From positions 1 to 5,550 of IMG/VR virus record IMGVR_UViG_3300011982_000239: a stretch of 5,550 nucleotides of DNA. The stretch is one strand, 5' to 3'. Origin of the DNA: a virus. The position numbers were made by a program, and so were the translations under genes. Of this stretch, positions 1-5,550 are shown piece by piece (position 1 is the first letter of the stretch; each line of letters opens with the position of its first letter). The notes below the pieces were generated by a model, which worked only from the letters and a program-made list of their open reading frames with translations, had not been told where the DNA came from and made no database searches.

Positions 1-81
1 GATTATGAACTTTCTGCAGAAAAGTTAAATTTATTGTATTGTGCGATTATTGATTTTACTGAATCAATAAAAATCGCATAA
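1..81 (+). CDS. 3' fragment (26 codons plus TAA) of the small HTH protein gene that begins at 5422, if the molecule is circular
   Basis: Frame 1 is open from base 1 to TAA at 79-81 (DYELSAEKLNLLYCAIIDFTESIKIA). It is in phase with the ORF running off the 3' end, whose 129 nt are exactly 43 codons. Confidence 0.55.
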   Translation, partial: DYELSAEKLNLLYCAIIDFTESIKIA

Positions 82-105
82 CATACATTATTTACATAAA
101 TATAT

Positions 106-114
106 TGGTACTAT
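106..114 (+). promoter_or_regulatory. Candidate extended -10 promoter element (TGgTACTAT) upstream of the 59-aa gene
   Basis: TG-n-TACTAT lies about 22 nt upstream of ATG 136. It is part of a roughly 17-nt motif (TATTGGTACTATTTTAT) repeated at 5382-5399. No good -35 hexamer sits at proper spacing. Confidence 0.3.
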
Positions 115-135
115 TTTATTAGAAAGGTGGTTTTT

Positions 136-315
136 ATGTCTAACACTTGTACACTAAAAGTGGAGCGTGAGATTGTTGAAAAGAATGGTAAAACTTATAA
201 GAATTTATTTCTCATCGTTCCTAAGTTCAATGGAGAAGTTAAAAAGATTTCTCTATATGATCTTAATGGCTATGCTCGTGAGTTTATTAATGATTATTTA
301 GATTCTGTTAAGTAG
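136..315 (+). CDS. 59-aa small soluble Lys/Glu-rich protein; candidate ssDNA-binding (gene V-like) protein by size and position only
   Basis: ATG 136 is preceded by AAAGGTGG (123-130). The track start at 127 is a GTG inside that RBS. The gene lies between the replication module and the structural genes. No recognisable motif. Confidence 0.6.
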   Translation: MSNTCTLKVEREIVEKNGKTYKNLFLIVPKFNGEVKKISLYDLNGYAREFINDYLDSVK

Positions 316-335
316 TTTTAGAAGGGTAGAGATCT

Positions 336-1427
336 ATGAAAAAGGTATTTATGTTTATTTTGACATTTCTAATATCTTTACAGGTAGTTTCTCTACCCGT
401 TTTTGCTTCTGGTACTGTTACTGCTATTCCATACGATAGTATGGATGCTTATGCTTATTTCTCTTCTAAAGGTTTAATTAATTTTTCTTCTTCTGGTGTT
501 CCGTCAAATATAGTACATACTGTTCCTGATAAAGAGTCCACTATTAATTGTTATGGTTCTCGTCAGTCGGAAAAATATTCTGCTGAAGAAAAGAAAAATT
601 ATAATTTTTATTGTAAAGCGTATGATGGCTATTCTGGTTATTATACTGAAAATAATTTTCTTTCTATGTCTTATCCTACTGTTTCTGGTAGATGGCGTTA
701 TACAGGTACGTATGATCCTAGTTCTTTTGTTTCTTTTGGTGGTTATCAGGGTTATATTTATCTTGAATTTCTTTCTACTGTACAAGTTTATGGTGATATT
801 TATATAGCTGGTGAGCATACACCCGTTCATTCTCATGTTGAGAATTTATTAATTCAATATGTAGCTAACTTTAGGGGTGTATCTTATTTTCATTACGTTT
901 TTAGATTTAAGTCTACTGATCCTTATTTCTCTATAGACTTTTCTCGCTTTGTTGATAAAGATGTGACTGTTGTTCCTATTCTTTTAAAACCTGAATCTTT
1001 TTTAACTGATATTGAGCGTGCGCGTTTCGGTCTTCCTACTTCTACTCAACAAGCTATATATGATTTGAAAGCTATTACTGTTCAGAAATTTGATGAATTA
1101 ATTTCTAATTTAGGTGGTGTTCCTAGTAGTGATCCTGATTTAAATCAGCTTCTTTCTACTATATCTGTTAATAATAAGAATTATGATTCTACTAATAAGA
1201 ATTTTAATGATTTAGAAAATTCTTTTTCTAATGACATGAATAATAGTTTAACTTCTATTGATTCTAATCCTAAATTAATTACTAATTCTAAGTTTATTAA
1301 TTCAATGAAGTTTGTTTCTGATTTATACACTAAATTGGTTATTGATACTCCTTTTGAACAGATTTTAATGTTTACTGCTACTTTAGGTATTGCTTTAGTT
1401 TTAATTGGAAAGTTGAGAAATAGGTGA
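336..1427 (+). CDS. pIII-like minor coat / adsorption protein (secreted, C-terminal membrane anchor)
   Basis: RBS GAAGGG is at 321-326. The N-terminal signal peptide MKKVFMFILTFLISLQVVSLPVFA/SG has a VFA cleavage-type site. The N-terminal region is Tyr/Gly-rich, followed by an Asn/Ser-rich low-complexity linker. The terminal TM helix plus basic tail is ILMFTATLGIALVLIGKLRNR. It is the largest ORF and is followed by a pVI-like gene, as in Ff phages. Confidence 0.7.
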   Translation: MKKVFMFILTFLISLQVVSLPVFASGTVTAIPYDSMDAYAYFSSKGLINFSSSGVPSNIVHTVPDKESTINCYGSRQSEKYSAEEKKNYNFYCKAYDGYSGYYTENNFLSMSYPTVSGRWRYTGTYDPSSFVSFGGYQGYIYLEFLSTVQVYGDIYIAGEHTPVHSHVENLLIQYVANFRGVSYFHYVFRFKSTDPYFSIDFSRFVDKDVTVVPILLKPESFLTDIERARFGLPTSTQQAIYDLKAITVQKFDELISNLGGVPSSDPDLNQLLSTISVNNKNYDSTNKNFNDLENSFSNDMNNSLTSIDSNPKLITNSKFINSMKFVSDLYTKLVIDTPFEQILMFTATLGIALVLIGKLRNR

Positions 1428-1642
1428 TGTTAGAATTTATTAAAACTCTTTTAGGTACTTTTGGTTCTTTGTTTACTTTTTTTTGGAATTTTATTTCTTC
1501 TTTATTTAATCTTTTTTCTAAATTACCTTCTTTTATTCTTTTTCTTACTAATAGTATTGCTTTACTTCCTATGATTCTGATTCCTTTTATTACTGCTGCT
1601 ATTAGTATTTACGTTGTTTTGTTTATTGTTGGGAGAAATTAA
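1427..1642 (+). CDS. 71-aa polytopic hydrophobic protein, pVI-like minor virion/membrane protein by position
   Basis: ATG 1427 shares its A with the upstream TGA stop (1425-1427), suggesting translational coupling. The track start at 1424 is a GTG. There are two to three hydrophobic segments, and the protein ends in ...IVGRN. Confidence 0.6.
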   Translation: MLEFIKTLLGTFGSLFTFFWNFISSLFNLFSKLPSFILFLTNSIALLPMILIPFITAAISIYVVLFIVGRN

Positions 1643-1870
1643 ATGGGTGAAGCTCTTACTTTGTTGTTTCAAATTTATTCTAAATTCATTGAATTTATTT
1701 TTGATAAAGCTGAAATTTTGAATGGTGTTACTTTAGGTTGGATTGCTTTAAGCGTTCTTATCTTTAGTGTTTTGATTAAGTCTCTTATGGCTGTTCCTTC
1801 TCGGGCCCAAGGTCATTCTTTTGGTGATAGTCCGACTGTTAAGTATTTAAAAAAGAAAAATGGTGATTGA
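1643..1870 (+). CDS. 75-aa single-pass membrane protein, function unknown
   Basis: GGGAG (1631-1635) lies 7 nt upstream of ATG 1643, which directly abuts the preceding TAA. One central TM segment (VTLGWIALSVLIFSVLIKSLMAV) and a basic C-terminus. Confidence 0.6.
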   Translation: MGEALTLLFQIYSKFIEFIFDKAEILNGVTLGWIALSVLIFSVLIKSLMAVPSRAQGHSFGDSPTVKYLKKKNGD

Positions 1871-2222
1871 TATGGATAATGGTTGCACTGTTTCTTTCGA
1901 TGGTGATCAGGGTGGTACTTATTTTGTTCCTTGTAATGTTGTTAAATTTTTAAGTGATAAAGATTTATCTTCTTCATGTTCTGAAACTATTTATTTATTT
2001 CGTGATTTATCTTTAGAACATTTTAAGATTTCTTGTTCTTCTTATTCTTTACCTTCGTATGTAGATTCTAATCATACTGTTCATTCTATTTCTAATGTGT
2101 CTAATATTCGTTTTAATGCTATGTCTAATGTTTATCGTAATTTAGATTATGTTTACTTATTTGTAGCTTTTATCGTCTCTGTATATTGTCTTTTTAAAAT
2201 GTTAAGGGGGTTTGTAAGATGA
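1860..2222 (+). CDS. About 116-120-aa protein with a C-terminal TM anchor, function unknown (possible minor virion protein)
   Basis: The ORF is open 1860-2222. An alternative and perhaps better start is ATG 1872, with GGTGA 6 nt upstream and just after the upstream TGA. The C-terminal hydrophobic anchor is YVYLFVAFIVSVYCLFKMLRGFVR. No signal peptide. Confidence 0.55.
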   Translation: MVIDMDNGCTVSFDGDQGGTYFVPCNVVKFLSDKDLSSSCSETIYLFRDLSLEHFKISCSSYSLPSYVDSNHTVHSISNVSNIRFNAMSNVYRNLDYVYLFVAFIVSVYCLFKMLRGFVR

Positions 2223-2365
2223 TAGATCAGATCATGGTTTTTCTTGGTAAGAATGATTATCCATTTTTGAGTCAGTTTCTTAGTGTTGTTGTTCTTACTG
2301 TAATTGTTTTAGTAGCTCTTAATATTCTTCAGTCTACTCTTTTTTGGGTAGGTGGTAAGAGATGA
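2219..2365 (+). CDS. 48-aa small hydrophobic protein (not in the ORF track); pVII/pIX-like virion cap protein candidate by position
   Basis: ATG 2219 overlaps the upstream TGA (ATGA) and GGGGG (2206-2210) lies 8 nt upstream. Translation is MIDQIMVFLGKNDYPFLSQFLSVVVLTVIVLVALNILQSTLFWVGGKR, with one TM segment. The stop TGA at 2363-2365 overlaps the next ATG. Confidence 0.5.
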   Translation: MIDQIMVFLGKNDYPFLSQFLSVVVLTVIVLVALNILQSTLFWVGGKR

Positions 2366-2514
2366 TGATACAGGTTGTTACTTTCGTTTTTAAGCTTATG
2401 ACTGATTGGGTTAATTTAGTTTCTTCGTCTTGGTTGTTAAGTATATTTGTGTTGTTCAGTATTATTGCACTTGTTGTAAATTTAGTTGTTAATAGTACTG
2501 CAAATAAACAGTAG
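2362..2514 (+). CDS. 50-aa small hydrophobic protein (not in the ORF track); pVII/pIX-like candidate by position
   Basis: ATG 2362 overlaps the upstream stop (ATGA) and AGGTGG (2350-2355) lies 6 nt upstream. Translation is MMIQVVTFVFKLMTDWVNLVSSSWLLSIFVLFSIIALVVNLVVNSTANKQ. It ends at TAG 2512-2514, immediately before the coat-gene RBS. Confidence 0.5.
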   Translation: MMIQVVTFVFKLMTDWVNLVSSSWLLSIFVLFSIIALVVNLVVNSTANKQ

Positions 2515-2527
2515 AAAGGGGGAAATC

Positions 2528-2695
2528 ATGGAAGCTTTATTAGCTAGTATTGCACTTGTAGCTGCTGAGATTTTTAAGTATGTTGGTACAATTGCTACTA
2601 CAATTACTTCTACACCATTATTACTACTTACAGTTGGTTTCTTGGTTGTTGGTGGTGCTGTTGGTATTTTTGGTCGTTTATTATCTAGAAATTAG
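2528..2695 (+). CDS. Major coat protein paralog 1 (pVIII-like, 55 aa)
   Basis: The strong RBS AAAGGGGGA is followed by ATG 2528. The track extension to 2486 lacks an RBS and overlaps the previous small ORF. The protein is small, with a hydrophobic/amphipathic N-terminal segment, a TSTP hinge, a Gly-rich TM helix LLLLTVGFLVVGGAVGIFG and a basic tail RLLSRN. Confidence 0.75.
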   Translation: MEALLASIALVAAEIFKYVGTIATTITSTPLLLLTVGFLVVGGAVGIFGRLLSRN

Positions 2696-2711
2696 TTAGG
2701 AGGTTGTTTTT

Positions 2712-2903
2712 ATGGAAGGTGGTGTAGTTAATCCTATGGTTGAACTTCTTAAATCTATTGGTTATGTAGCTACTGCAATTTTTACTTATGTTGGTACTAT
2801 TGCTAGTACTATTACAAGTACTCCGTTATTGTTACTTACCGTAGGTTTCTTAGTTGTTGGTGGTGCTATCGGTATTTTTGGTCGTTTGCTCTCAAGAAAC
2901 TAA
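2712..2903 (+). CDS. Major coat protein paralog 2 (pVIII-like, 63 aa)
   Basis: RBS AGGAGG lies about 8 nt upstream of ATG 2712. The protein is a full-length homolog of the preceding ORF. The C-terminal 38 residues differ at only 2 positions, and there is an 8-aa longer N-terminus. A strong terminator follows. Confidence 0.75.
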   Translation: MEGGVVNPMVELLKSIGYVATAIFTYVGTIASTITSTPLLLLTVGFLVVGGAIGIFGRLLSRN

Positions 2904-2913
2904 GTAGAAAGGT

Positions 2914-2944
2914 GGGAGCTTATAATATAAGCTCCCTTTGTTTA
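2914..2944 (+). terminator. Rho-independent terminator after the coat genes
   Basis: A perfect palindrome GGGAGCTTATAATATAAGCTCCC (2914-2936) gives a stem of about 9 bp (2914-2922 / 2928-2936). It is followed by TTTGTTTA. The placement after the major coat gene mirrors the Ff gene VIII terminator. Confidence 0.8.
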
Positions 2945-3078
2945 TGGATGTTAGTTTAATTATTAATTTTGTTATTAACGCAATTAAGATGATTTATACA
3001 TCTAATTTTGTTTTAATTTTTTTCGGTTTTGTTCTTGTTGATTGTTTGTTTTCTTTTTTTACTAGAAGGTTAATGTGA
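2944..3078 (+). CDS. Possible 44-aa hydrophobic peptide (not in the ORF track)
   Basis: Translation from ATG 2944 to TGA 3076-3078 is MDVSLIINFVINAIKMIYTSNFVLIFFGFVLVDCLFSFFTRRLM. The stop overlaps ATG 3078 of the ATPase gene (TGATG). There is no Shine-Dalgarno, and T-rich DNA yields hydrophobic peptides in any frame, so support is weak. Confidence 0.3.
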   Translation: MDVSLIINFVINAIKMIYTSNFVLIFFGFVLVDCLFSFFTRRLM

Positions 3079-3866
3079 TGTTTAAATTTATTCTTATTTT
3101 GTTTTTATTCATGTTTTTGTTTTTAAAACTTACTAATAAGTATGTTAATCCTTATAAGCTTATTATGATTTTTGGTAAAAAGGGTAGTGGTAAAACCACT
3201 ACTTTAACAAAGATAGCATTAAAAGAATTAAAAAGAAAGCATAAAGTTTATTCGACTGTTGAAATTCCTAGCACTTATCTTTTCAATACTGATGATATTG
3301 GATCTTTGACTTTTGAACCTGGTTCTACTGTTTTAATTGATGAAGTTGGTATGATTTGGGACAATCGCGATTTTAAAAATTTTAAGCCACAAGTTAGAGA
3401 TTTTTTTAAATATCAGAGACAATATAAGCTTAAAATCTATTTGTTTAGTCAGACTTTTGACATTGATTTGAAGCTTAGAAACTTAACTGATGAGATGTAT
3501 TTACTTTCTAATTGTTTTCGTGTTTTTTCTGTAGCTCGTCGTATTTCTAAGAAGATAACTATTAAAGAATGTGCTGATGGTACTAGTACTCTTTCCGATA
3601 CTTATGAATTTTATCCTTTATTGTTTGGTGGTTTAAAGTTTACTTTTATTCCTCGGTATACGTCTTTCTATAAATCTTATGATCCTAAGAAATTAGCTTA
3701 TATTAATGGTACTTATTTGGAATTAAATGATGTTCAGAAACGTTATTTAAGTAGTCGTAAATGGTTTTTTGATAAATTTAAAATCGGTTTTATTAAGTTT
3801 ATTGATTTTCTTAAGTCTGCAGTGCGCCCACGCAGTCGCACTGCAACGAAAAAAGTAGAAGGGTAG
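3078..3866 (+). CDS. Zot/pI-like P-loop NTPase, filamentous-phage assembly (morphogenesis) ATPase with an N-terminal TM anchor
   Basis: GAAGG (3065-3069) lies 8 nt upstream of ATG 3078; the track start at 3075 is a GTG. The N-terminal hydrophobic helix is FKFILILFLFMFLFLKL. Walker A GKKGSGKT is at nt 3174-3197 and Walker B VLIDE at nt 3330-3344. Size and position fit an inovirus pI. Confidence 0.75.
   Translation: MFKFILILFLFMFLFLKLTNKYVNPYKLIMIFGKKGSGKTTTLTKIALKELKRKHKVYSTVEIPSTYLFNTDDIGSLTFEPGSTVLIDEVGMIWDNRDFKNFKPQVRDFFKYQRQYKLKIYLFSQTFDIDLKLRNLTDEMYLLSNCFRVFSVARRISKKITIKECADGTSTLSDTYEFYPLLFGGLKFTFIPRYTSFYKSYDPKKLAYINGTYLELNDVQKRYLSSRKWFFDKFKIGFIKFIDFLKSAVRPRSRTATKKVEG
3818..3845. repeat. 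GC-rich inverted repeat (9-bp stem, 10-nt loop) inside the 3' end of the ATPase gene
   Basis: TGCAGTGCG (3818-3826) pairs with CGCACTGCA (3837-3845) around the loop CCCACGCAGT. It is a conspicuous GC island in AT-rich sequence. Confidence 0.7.
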
Positions 3867-3873
3867 TATTATT

Positions 3874-4023
3874 ATGTTTTTATTAAAATCGTTCTTAAAG
3901 CTTTTGTATTTGCCTTCTAAAGTTATTTATCATTTGATGATGATTGTTTTGATTCCTTTTCCAAAGTTTAGAAAAATTTTTAGTATGTGTTTTTATGTTT
4001 ATCGTAGGTGGTTATATTTATGA
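3874..4023 (+). CDS. Possible 49-aa basic hydrophobic peptide (not in the ORF track)
   Basis: ATG 3874 has GAAGGG about 10 nt upstream. Translation is MFLLKSFLKLLYLPSKVIYHLMMIVLIPFPKFRKIFSMCFYVYRRWLYL. The stop TGA at 4021-4023 overlaps ATG 4020 of the next gene (ATGA). The T-rich composition caveat applies. Confidence 0.4.
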   Translation: MFLLKSFLKLLYLPSKVIYHLMMIVLIPFPKFRKIFSMCFYVYRRWLYL

Positions 4024-4358
4024 AATTTAAAACATGTGGTTATTTAGATAAGTTTGATACTGTTGGTGGTCTTATTAAGTATTTGAAACGTAATCATTTA
4101 TTAGAAGATTCTATTGTTTATGTGATTGGTTTTGATGAAGAACGTTTGTATTCTATGTTTGATTATGATGATTTAAAGTTTTTATTATCTAGTTTCGGTA
4201 ATAGTTCTTATTATAATTGTGATCATTGTTGTGTTTCTTCTGATGTTGGTTACACAGTTGATTTTTACCAGATAATGTTAACTGATTCTTTACCTAAAGT
4301 TGGTGATTTATTTTTACAAGCTTATCCACATAAGTATGAAAATACAGATAAAAAATAG
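4020..4358 (+). CDS. 112-aa acidic soluble protein of unknown function, with a CDHCC cysteine cluster
   Basis: AGGTGG (4005-4010) lies 9 nt upstream of ATG 4020; the track start at 4008 is a GTG inside the RBS. There is no TM segment and no motif I recognise. Confidence 0.65.
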   Translation: MKFKTCGYLDKFDTVGGLIKYLKRNHLLEDSIVYVIGFDEERLYSMFDYDDLKFLLSSFGNSSYYNCDHCCVSSDVGYTVDFYQIMLTDSLPKVGDLFLQAYPHKYENTDKK

Positions 4359-4403
4359 TTATAATTTCGAAAAAAATTATAACGTTAGCTCTGCTAATTT
4401 TTT
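4358..4403 (+). terminator. AT-rich hairpin plus mini-hairpin and T-run; possible terminator and/or ssDNA structural element (packaging signal or minus-strand origin)
   Basis: GTTATAATTT (4358-4367) pairs with AAATTATAAC (4374-4383) around a 6-nt loop. Next, TTAGC (4385-4389) pairs with GCTAA (4393-4397) and is followed by TTTTTT (4398-4403). The element starts at the stop codon of the 112-aa gene. Confidence 0.4.
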
Positions 4404-4455
4404 ATATGTATTTGGCAAGCGTAAGCGCGCAAGTGTCGATTATTTTTGTAGCAAA

Positions 4456-4495
4456 AATAGTGAGGCTTCTATTACTTGATATAAGCCTCACTATT
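4456..4495 (+). other. Putative plus-strand replication origin: 13-bp stem hairpin with a candidate Rep nick site in the loop
   Basis: AATAGTGAGGCTT (4456-4468) pairs perfectly with AAGCCTCACTATT (4483-4495). The 14-nt loop is CTATTACTTGATAT. The loop 9-mer ACTTGATAT (4474-4482) equals the nick region of the phiX174 origin as I recall it. The hairpin lies about 40 nt upstream of rep. Confidence 0.55.
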
Positions 4496-4536
4496 CAAAG
4501 TAATGATTTTATCAAAGATAATTTTTAGGGGGGTCT

Positions 4537-5376
4537 ATGTTATGTGAAAGACAAGATGTCGTACGTTATTATGATTCTCGTTTAACGTTGTTTTCTGACG
4601 GAAAATTGGTCATCCGTGATTATGATTCTGCTATACAGAAGATACCTAATGGTTTTGAAGAATTACCAGGAGAATTACCAGGAGAATTAGTTACTCATTC
4701 ATCAAAAAAAGAACGTGATAAGTTTGGATCATGTCGCTTTGATAATTTGTTTAGAAGTAGAAAATTAGTTATTGATTTAGCATACGAAAATAAGGATATC
4801 TGGAAATCGTTTTTAACTCTTACATTTGCTGAAAATGTAAAGGATATTGATTTTGCGAATAAGTGTTTTAATTCTTGGTTAACTTCGGTTAGACAGTCAT
4901 TTTTTGATTTTGCATATTTATGCGTTCCTGAATTTCAGAAGAGGGGAGCTGTTCACTATCATTTATTATCTAATTTAGAGGTAGGAGGGGAGTTACTTCC
5001 AATCCAAAACGAAAAAAAGCATATGTATGATGTTAAGTATTGGAAATATGGTTTTACTTCTGCTTTTGATTTACGCTTAGCTGATGATAAATTTAATGTT
5101 TCTCTTTATGTTTGTAAGTACTTGTACAAGGATATTGATAATCGGCTTTTTGGTCGTAAGAAGATAATGCATAGTCGCAATTTGAATTTACCTAAAGTTT
5201 CTACGATTTTACAAAATAATTCTTATGTTCAATCTATTTTAGCGCATATTATTGATGATAAAGAAATTATAGAGTTTAAATTTGATTCAAAGAAAAAATT
5301 TCAAGTTGGTTTTAAGGAGCAAACAGTTTTTCTCTCTAATGATGAAATGAAGAAAATTGATTTCTTATTTACTTAA
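4537..5376 (+). CDS. rep: Rolling-circle replication initiator (HUH endonuclease superfamily Rep)
   Basis: RBS AGGGGGG is at 4527-4533. Motif I FLTLTF is at nt 4810-4827. Motif II (HUH) VHYHLL has HYH at nt 4954-4962. Motif III YVCKYLYK, with two tyrosines spaced YxxxY, is at nt 5107-5130. Confidence 0.85.
   Translation: MLCERQDVVRYYDSRLTLFSDGKLVIRDYDSAIQKIPNGFEELPGELPGELVTHSSKKERDKFGSCRFDNLFRSRKLVIDLAYENKDIWKSFLTLTFAENVKDIDFANKCFNSWLTSVRQSFFDFAYLCVPEFQKRGAVHYHLLSNLEVGGELLPIQNEKKHMYDVKYWKYGFTSAFDLRLADDKFNVSLYVCKYLYKDIDNRLFGRKKIMHSRNLNLPKVSTILQNNSYVQSILAHIIDDKEIIEFKFDSKKKFQVGFKEQTVFLSNDEMKKIDFLFT
4660..4689 (+). repeat. Perfect 12-nt tandem repeat, 2.5 copies, inside rep (encodes ELPGELPGEL)
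   Basis: GAATTACCAGGA occurs at 4660-4671 and 4672-4683, followed by GAATTA at 4684-4689. Confidence 0.9.
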
Positions 5377-5384
5377 TTTTTTAT

Positions 5385-5393
5385 TGGTAGTAT
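5385..5393 (+). promoter_or_regulatory. Candidate extended -10 promoter element (TGgTAGTAT) upstream of the HTH gene
   Basis: TG-n-TAGTAT lies about 29 nt upstream of ATG 5422. It is embedded in TATTGGTAGTATATTTAT, a near copy of the motif at 103-119. Confidence 0.3.
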
Positions 5394-5421
5394 ATTTATG
5401 GTGTAAGGAGGTATCAATTTT

Positions 5422-5550
5422 ATGTTAACGAAGTCGGACTATCGTTCGTACTTCGCTAAGTGTAAGAAATACATTAAGTTTAATTCTTTTCTTAAAGATT
5501 TAGGTATTAATCAGTCTGCATTTTCTAAGTTTATGAAAGATGATTTATTT
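5422..5550 (+). CDS. 5' part (43 codons) of a small helix-turn-helix (Xre/Cro-like) regulator; runs off the window end
   Basis: AAGGAGG (5405-5411) lies 10 nt upstream of ATG 5422. Translation is MLTKSDYRSYFAKCKKYIKFNSFLKDLGINQSAFSKFMKDDLF. The segment FLKDLGINQSAFSKFMK has the helix-turn-helix pattern typical of small phage repressors. There is no stop before base 5550. Confidence 0.6.
   Translation, partial: MLTKSDYRSYFAKCKKYIKFNSFLKDLGINQSAFSKFMKDDLF

Follow-up and report, generated by a model that had tools for sequence, protein, structure and literature searches.

The 5,550-nucleotide (nt) stretch of viral DNA analysed here as a whole (IMG/VR virus record IMGVR_UViG_3300011982_000239, positions 1 to 5,550; hereafter the window) carries a perfect hairpin upstream of a gene for a rolling-circle replication initiator (rep), and this hairpin was examined as a candidate origin of replication. 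It is intergenic, located 42 nt 5' of rep within 4359-4536, the largest non-coding region of the window, which lies directly 5' of that gene. The features of the locus are as follows.

4456-4468, + strand: 5' arm of the putative origin hairpin, AATAGTGAGGCTT; exact complement of the 3' arm, with compensatory changes in relatives
4469-4482, + strand: 14-nt loop, CTATTACTTGATAT; carries the conserved putative nick-site motif TACTTGATA
4483-4495, + strand: 3' arm, AAGCCTCACTATT; holds a second conserved box, C4487-N-C4489-A4490 (CTCACTAT)
4537-5376, + strand: rep, a 279-amino-acid HUH rolling-circle initiator; Pfam PF23343 (REP_ORF2-G2P), 57.1 bits, cut-off 27.8

As described in the initial annotation, positions 4456-4468 are the exact reverse complement of 4483-4495 and form a perfect stem of 13 base pairs (bp) around a 14-nt loop. 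This is the longest perfect stem in the whole window when loops of 3-20 nt are considered; in 200 dinucleotide shuffles of the window stem length did not exceed 12 bp, and none reached 13. The claim that the hairpin is the strongest structural element of its intergenic region holds among perfect hairpins and does not extend beyond them, given the equally long, imperfect (94%) and widely spaced repeat 4340-4356/4397-4413 in the same region. Folded as single-stranded DNA (ssDNA), the hairpin has a free energy of -12.7 kcal/mol (z = -4.81), which none of 200 shuffles equalled. The predicted fold includes an extra inner mini-stem, TAT(T)/(G)ATA, across a C/T mismatch; the open loop may therefore be only 4-8 nt, about TACTTG, and the proposed G4478/A4479 bond lies at its 3' edge in this fold.

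A stable, GC-containing hairpin that follows the last upstream open reading frame (ORF; 4008-4358) could also be the intrinsic terminator of the structural and assembly operon. We consider this extremely improbable. The stem is followed on the + strand by CAAAGTAATG and not by a T-run, and a terminator scan was silent at 4300-4600, yet it called 2914-2936 after the coat genes. Moreover, a terminator does not need the invariant loop sequence that is described below.

The loop includes the 9-mer ACTTGATAT at 4474-4482 (+ strand), which occurs once in the window against an expectation of 0.09; 17 of 200 shuffles contained at least one copy. It is identical to positions 4301-4309 of phiX174, the core of the origin that is nicked between G and A. 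The phiX174 origin sequence given in the initial annotation agrees with the reference: NC_001422 has CCCCCAACTTGATATTAATAACACTATAGACCAC (...CCCCCAACTTGATATTAATAACACTATAGACCACC...) with a rep_origin annotated at 4306, the A that follows CAACTTG in CAACTTG/ATATTAATAACACTATAGACCAC. The two bases 5' of the 9-mer differ, reading TT in the window and CA in phiX174. The positions assigned earlier to G4478/A4479, to TTGATA (4476-4481) and to AGTAAT (4499-4504, 17 nt later) were also accurate. By analogy with phiX174, Rep would cleave between G4478 and A4479 on the + (viral, coding) strand.

The phiX174 origin has been described by a three-domain scheme (recognition, spacer and key), its right-hand part being the 'key' sequence to which protein A binds. 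The comparison made here uses the conservation among phiX174, G4 and alpha3, which have a 30-nt origin in common, CAACTTGATATTAATAACACTATAGACCAC. The window is identical to it at 17 of 28 positions without gaps; these comprise the 9-mer and CACTAT at equal spacing, and in both cases the motif is on the packaged, coding strand. Within the second block of the phiX174 origin (AACACTATAGACCAC) the window matches CACTAT and differs at the AGACCAC bases.

The origins of the plasmids pC194 and pUB110 show a similar likeness. The window reads CTTGATA at 4475-4481, the conserved nick site of Rep_1 initiators (PMC10378824), and a 36-bp stretch of pC194 that includes CTTGATA has been used as, and is sufficient for, termination of rolling-circle replication (RCR; PMC7072734). 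The pC194 double-strand origin (dso; NC_002013) reads TCTTGATAATAAGGGTAACTATTGCC, with ACTATT one nucleotide further away than in the window. In pC194 and pUB110, as in the window, CTTGATA is followed by an ACTATT box just upstream of rep and is associated with a palindrome, and the host range is Gram-positive. However, the pC194 palindrome is downstream of the nick, whereas that of the window encloses the nick motif. The initiators also differ: those of pC194 and pUB110 are Rep_1 proteins (PF01446), which the window Rep is not, and pC194 RepA uses a pair of Tyr and Glu (PMC5703833) where the window Rep has two tyrosines.

The initiator itself is closer to protein A of phiX174. Rep contains the motifs FLTLTF, VHYHLL and YVCKYLYK (Y191, Y195), corresponding to FDTLTL, HFHAVHF and YVAKYVNK in protein A (hTLT, HUH and Y..KY in both). 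In an alignment of 19 related sequences (38-87% identity) H140, H142, Y191, K194 and Y195 are invariant, as are the motifs FxTLTF, HYH and Y..KY. Protein A has its own family, PF05840, but its match to PF23343 likewise exceeds the gathering score. The two-tyrosine motif of Rep is thus phiX-A-like, as had been suggested, with YxxKY and PF23343 common to both proteins; since the nick core is also identical and the motif set is the same, origin and initiator are both of the phiX type. PF23343 was alone above its cut-off in the Pfam scan of Rep; RepSA and Helitron_like_N matched below theirs, and no match was found to Rep_1 (PF01446) at E ≤ 0.1, to Phage_GPA (PF05840) or to a helicase domain. Rep is also shorter than protein A (279 against 513 amino acids). 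A profile of the 19 Reps gave no hit among the Protein Data Bank sequences, so that a related solved structure is not detectable by sequence. Rep is presumed to be the enzyme that cuts the loop.

Two further differences separate the window from phiX174. The phiX174 origin is inside gene A and has no hairpin, whereas the window element is intergenic and in the loop of a 13-bp stem; and phiX174 is icosahedral, while the window virus is filamentous (Zot-type assembly ATPase). The filamentous Ff phages (f1/M13) resemble the window in having one large intergenic region with the plus origin, ssDNA hairpins and a replication gene nearby. Their Rep family and nick sequence differ from the phiX-type origin and initiator of the window.

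Conservation was examined in about 240 loci with relatives of Rep (220 non-redundant) from IMG/VR, GTDB species-representative genomes and JGI metagenomes, to which two prophage-bearing contigs (L247, L248) were added. In close relatives (Rep 74-84% identical) the hairpin is 41-42 nt before the rep ATG and TTACTTGATA is unchanged in all of them. Their stems come in two versions, GTGAGGCTT/AAGCCTCAC and GTGAGTTATAT/ATATAACTCAC, separated by three compensatory pair swaps (GCTT/AAGC to TTAT/ATAA), and the recombinant stem of L163 retains pairing with a 2-nt bulge. In relatives with Rep identities of 33-54% the TACTTGAT loop is the same but the stems are wholly different; wherever a start codon could be assigned, the element lies 20-60 nt upstream of rep. 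Examples are ttatgtggcttat-TACTTGAT-ataagccacataa in L082, from an Erysipelotrichaceae metagenome-assembled genome (MAG); gtgttctat-TACTTGAT-atagaacac in L172; gtggtatat-TACTTGAT-atataccac in L205; and gtgtgttcgtta-CTTGA-ttacgaacacac in L116, from a Solobacterium MAG. Placement of the motif, typically TACTTGAT, in a hairpin loop is found in the clade of the window and in many Bacilli-type relatives. The expectation that the loop would be conserved while the stem co-varies was therefore borne out by the alignments, and the sequence of the 5' arm is free to vary among relatives provided that pairing is kept. Bajarodino virus 42 (L245; a deposited gut inovirus, Rep only 29% identical) has a hairpin upstream of rep at about 950-990, GTGAACCT-CTACTTGACTAA-AGGTTCAC, whose loop carries TACTTGAC instead of TACTTGAT; TACTTGAC is a possible natural variant of the nick motif.

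The motif is strictly linked to rep, both in where it lies and in its strand. The 150 nt that precede rep hold 66 copies of ACTTGAT on the + strand and 2 on the - strand, and its density upstream of rep is 1.43 per kb, compared with 0.14 and 0.09 per kb elsewhere (about 10-fold). It was found near rep in 7 of 8 loci with Rep identities of 70-100%, 3 of 6 at 50-70%, 62 of 84 at 40-50% and 46 of 108 at 30-40%. Perfect flanking stems of at least 8 bp surround 17 of 63 rep-proximal motifs and 7 of 340 background motifs (Fisher 4e-10); most of these seven in fact also adjoin rep.

A covariance model was built from 26 distinct hairpins and used to search about 1.7 Mb. It gave about 120 hits, nearly all on the + strand immediately upstream of rep, and in the window a single + strand hit at 4458-4495 (42.6 bits). 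ACTTGAT is invariant in the 26 hairpins and in the 33 strongest hits. Among the latter, 8 of 12 stem pairs are changed on both sides, and the covariation score is 0.313, compared with 0.150 +/- 0.018 in shuffles (0 of 500 reach the observed value). The 33-element alignment was fitted to the covariance model, which favours structure, but the score does not exceed 0.127 when the partners are slid against each other, and these low control scores argue that the signal is real.

An invariant loop on a variable stem, with the nick motif beside rep, is also the architecture of the origins of CRESS-DNA viruses (circular ssDNA viruses that encode a Rep) such as geminiviruses and circoviruses, and of pT181/pMV158-type plasmids (PMC5714925). 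These systems differ from the window in the nick motif and in the initiator, which is a single-Tyr Rep with a superfamily 3 (SF3) helicase, Rep_trans or Rep_2. The nonanucleotide consensus of the CRESS-DNA viruses is of the TAATATTAC / NANTATTAC type. A CRESS-DNA stem-loop origin was considered for the window and rejected: the loop CTATTACTTGATAT does not contain the nonanucleotide, and Rep has no helicase domain match.

The two arms of the hairpin are not equivalent. The register between the 3' arm and the nick motif is fixed, and the 5' arm, which lies at a variable distance, is simply the complement of the 3' arm. In the alignments C4489 and A4490 are invariant, within a box that reads CTCACTAT in the window, and the family consensus is ACTTGATA.a...C(T/A)CA(T/C)(A/T)A.T (also noted with the start tatTACTTGATA). 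In its simplest form this is ACTTGAT-N6-CNCA, a coding-strand motif that precedes a PF23343 rep by no more than about 100 nt and that the window has at 4474-4490. The box in the 3' arm is presumed to be the Rep-binding ('key') half of the origin. In Patescibacteria-type relatives ACTTGAT-TATAAC-CACA is kept without a 5' arm, as in the linear element TCTTAACTTGATTATAACCACACATCTAAAGAA, which precedes rep by about 35 nt. It follows that the functional unit under conservation is linear and has two parts, and the hairpin is a lineage-specific presentation of it.

The linear element of the Patescibacteria type, TCTTAACTTGATTATA(A/T)CCACACATCTAAAGAA, was observed in Patescibacteria (CPR) MAGs and environmental viral contigs (L014, L015, L017, L130, L137, L159, L231 and others), where it is highly conserved about 35 nt upstream of rep and has no hairpin. 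A separate hairpin with an A-run/T-run stem, whose loop is conserved as ..(G/T)TTGCCCGA.., is found in these loci about 80-90 nt upstream of rep, or at a greater distance in some of them; it could be a bidirectional terminator or another replication element. Some contigs from MAGs of Bacilli or 'Mollicutes' (L087 7807-7844, also L183-L185) carry rep with a linear ACTTGATAGTAGTCTCATAACT motif, followed by genes on the opposite strand that are not phage structural genes. It may be, therefore, that non-inovirus elements or decayed prophages carry the Rep/origin module as well.

The initial annotation had alternatively taken TTGATA in the loop for the -35 hexamer of a rep promoter with AGTAAT downstream, and a primarily transcriptional role, with the inverted repeat as operator, has to be weighed in this light. 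TTGATA agrees with TTGACA at 5 of 6 positions and AGTAAT follows at 17 nt; in addition, pUB110 provides a precedent for coupling of origin and promoter, as its dso-bound Rep spreads over the rep promoter (PMC5703833). A promoter scan did not call the pair because the second position of the -10 hexamer is G, and in close relatives AGTAAT is replaced by AGTCTC, AGTATT or ACTTTT, so that this proposal was not upheld. The conservation also goes beyond a hexamer, covering TACTTGATA and the CNCA box, with the strand bias of 66 to 2 given above, and in L082 only about 33 nt separate the loop and the assigned rep ATG, which leaves too little room for a -35 element with a leader. A mainly transcriptional function is thus very unlikely. 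A better conserved promoter-like site was found just downstream.

4494-4522, + strand: promoter-like site TTCAAA-17-GATAAT; 9 of 12 matches in a consensus scan, a tentative candidate for the rep promoter

Its second hexamer is kept as nnTAAT (GATAAT, TATAAT, TTTAAT, TCTAAT) in eight close relatives. The site is uncertain because transcription would start inside the G-run of the Shine-Dalgarno sequence. Since its TTCAAA hexamer overlaps the last 2 nt of the 3' arm, origin-bound Rep could plausibly affect transcription of rep, as in pUB110 (PMC5703833).

The remaining rivals concern other steps in the life of the single strand, and their evaluation involves two neighbouring elements of the same intergenic region.

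4340-4413: second structured domain; outer stem 4340-4356/4397-4413
4414-4438: GC island, GGCAAGCGTAAGCGCGCAAGTGTCG; nearly invariant in the closest clade

The outer stem of the 4340-4413 domain was observed to enclose a 10-bp hairpin (4358-4383, loop CGAAAA) and a further, small one at about 4386-4396. Eight close relatives differ by compensatory changes in each of the three stems, and the ssDNA fold of 4330-4540 as a whole has z = -7.16. The domain is a candidate for the complementary-strand origin, the packaging signal or both. The GC island had been put forward as an alternative Rep site. It is present as AGCGCGCAAG in 6 of 8 loci of the closest clade and in 0 of 212 more distant relatives, and this confinement to the closest clade led us to reject it as a Rep-linked element or nick site. 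It was also observed that most loci of this clade read TAGCGC, recalling the CS-6 element TAGCG(T/A) of plasmid single-strand origins.

Filamentous phages of the Ff type have a packaging hairpin beside their origins, and the window hairpin is stable and on the packaged strand, so it could be mainly a morphogenetic signal that only incidentally resembles nick sites. For a packaging hairpin one would expect the shape to be conserved, whereas here the invariant parts are the loop sequence and a box in one arm, both of which persist in relatives without a hairpin. The motif also tracks rep in position and strand and equals experimentally defined nick sites, and the covarying branched structure at 4340-4413 is separately available for packaging or for priming of the complementary strand. 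We therefore regard packaging as a very unlikely main function. Another candidate function is that of a complementary-strand (minus) origin recognised by host RNA polymerase or primase. The single-strand origins (sso) of RCR plasmids and Ff phages are hairpins that share the intergenic region of the plus origin (PMC5703833), and the window element is likewise strand-specific. However, its conserved sequence is the known nick motif and not an sso motif, and it is kept in relatives without the hairpin; 4340-4413 with the GC island folds more extensively (z = -7.16 for the whole region), covaries and is the better candidate, which leaves the hairpin as a very improbable minus origin. Packaging or complementary-strand synthesis may be an extra role of the hairpin beside that of origin, but 4340-4413 is the better candidate for these.

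Taken together, we consider it highly likely that the hairpin is the viral-strand (plus, 'double-strand') RCR origin, of the phiX174/pC194 type, of a small filamentous (inovirus-like) phage of the gut. Several observations weigh against this reading. ACTTGAT was found near rep in none of the 14 loci with Rep identity below 30%, and the region upstream of rep lacks such a motif in Spiroplasma phage SVGII3 and bajarodino virus 41. Nor is the hairpin universal: the Patescibacteria-type and some Bacilli-type loci (e.g. L087) keep the linear motif only, and phiX174 itself needs no hairpin. CACTAT is specific to the clade of the window, most relatives reading CATAAC in its place, and part of the 17/28 identity to phiX174 could be coincidental. 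When all weak hits of the covariance model are included, only 48-50% of the pair cells are paired; covariation is diluted there because many hits keep only the linear motif or another register. The stem register of the window itself is 2 nt off that of the majority of relatives, and the register of its clade appears as 54.8% paired cells at a slide of -2. Lastly, cleavage at the G/A bond is assigned by analogy. Since the hairpin is not universal and about half of the weak-hit cells are paired, the stem is probably helpful rather than essential.

From these features we infer a scheme for Rep binding, extrusion, the exact bond cleaved, the roles of the two tyrosines and that of the stem. On the replicative form, a supercoiled duplex, Rep would bind CTCACTAT, the box of the 3' arm, and the inverted repeat of 13-17 bp would extrude and present TACTTGAT single-stranded in the loop. 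One tyrosine of YVCKYLYK would then cut the + strand between G4478 and A4479 and become linked to the 5' phosphate of A4479, and the 3'-OH of G4478 would serve host enzymes as the primer for the leading strand. Once a round is complete, the origin, regenerated on the displaced single strand, would refold into the hairpin, so that a duplex binding site forms again and the loop again holds the nick motif. There the second tyrosine would cut while the first joins the ends, giving a circular + strand for packaging or for conversion to duplex.

The other genes of the window are in accordance with a small filamentous phage. The following features were annotated.

2528-2695 and 2712-2903, + strand: two tandem small hydrophobic coat-like proteins
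3075-3866, + strand: Zot-type assembly ATPase; Pfam Zot, 21.9 bits, cut-off 20.3
4008-4358: last ORF upstream of the hairpin

The last ORF of the window (5422-5550) runs off its end and continues in frame through 1-81 (stop at 79-81), giving a protein of 69 amino acids, and the window is therefore a complete circle of 5550 nt. This protein has no above-threshold Pfam match (DUF7726, E = 0.022); an ORF of 66-69 amino acids is found at the equivalent place after rep in the prophages of L247 and L248. All sizeable ORFs are on the T-rich + strand and so is the nick motif, which is what one expects of the strand that an inovirus packages and nicks. The coat-like proteins are tandem paralogues with nearly identical C-terminal halves (...TSTPLLLLTVGFLVVGGA(V/I)GIFGRLLSRN), presumably duplicated major coat proteins, and have counterparts in L247 at 7024-7183 and 7234-7393. 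The only convincing intrinsic terminator of the genome, 2914-2936, lies 3' of them (GGGAGCTTATA-A-TATAAGCTCCC, then TTTGTTTAT).

A DNA search of the GenBank phage collection found no close annotated relative of the window. The nearest annotated viruses were uncultured gut viruses named bajarodino, Dulem or 'Inovirus sp.'; their DNA match (about 70% identity) was confined to the Zot gene, and their Reps are 27-35% identical. Among the relatives, the motif was tabulated against the presence of Zot in order to tell linkage to Rep from linkage to the virion; tblastn with one divergent Zot, too insensitive for this purpose, found Zot in only 7 of 32 long loci. An Rfam scan of the whole window (E ≤ 1) gave no matches, and a scan of the window for tRNA and tmRNA found none.

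The two chromosomal contigs L247 and L248 carry prophages with the gene order of the window and Reps that are 81-82% identical. In L247, a bacterial contig of 189 kb, the prophage (Rep 82% identical) was observed between a gene for a XerC/D-type tyrosine recombinase and hup. Its ends are 37-nt imperfect direct repeats 5583 bp apart (4580-4616 and 10163-10199). The right repeat, TCGCATAA-CATACA-TTATGCGA, is dif-like with palindromic arms; the phage version of this site in the window, at about 65-100, reads AATCGCATAACATACATTATTTACATAA, and the phage has no integrase gene of its own. The arrangement suggests that integration is Xer/dif-mediated, in the manner of CTXphi-like filamentous phages, and the best reading of the window is a circular, dif-integrating inovirus-like phage of 5.55 kb. 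As close relatives thus exist as chromosomal prophages, the hairpin might have been the recombination (attachment) site. However, it is internal in both prophages, about 1.2 kb from the right end, and the junctions are formed by the different, dif-like sequence (about 65-100 in the window). An attachment function is refuted by these junctions and retains next to no likelihood.

In a search of the literature, no paper was found that describes this origin or any replication origin for this phage group. The origin is well supported but fairly ordinary, and not surprising in principle: the nick sequence is already known from phiX174 and pC194, and the understanding of rolling-circle replication is unchanged. 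Small filamentous phages and prophages of a widespread but uncultured group, which occurs in gut Bacilli-type bacteria, e.g. Erysipelotrichaceae, with relatives in Patescibacteria, thereby receive an origin and a nick site that are precise and testable. A simple search rule, ACTTGAT-N6-CNCA on the coding strand ahead of a PF23343 rep, can also be used to locate the origins of related metagenomic genomes in their hundreds. The nick site of phiX174 and pC194 is common to a further large Rep family, in which it is sometimes linear and sometimes presented in a hairpin; this is of use in annotation and in building ssDNA-producing vectors for Gram-positive hosts. A more tentative possibility, which we find rather doubtful, is that the bipartite origin of CTTGATA and CA-box is an ancient module co-inherited with PF23343 Reps in icosahedral Microviridae, in filamentous phages of Bacillota and in Patescibacteria elements. 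One lineage would then have gained, upstream, an inverted copy of the half that Rep binds, turning a linear phiX-type origin into the hairpin-presented one, and the hairpin might double as a packaging signal. If true, these loci would be a natural snapshot of the emergence of a stem-loop origin, with Rep acting on a self-folded single strand.

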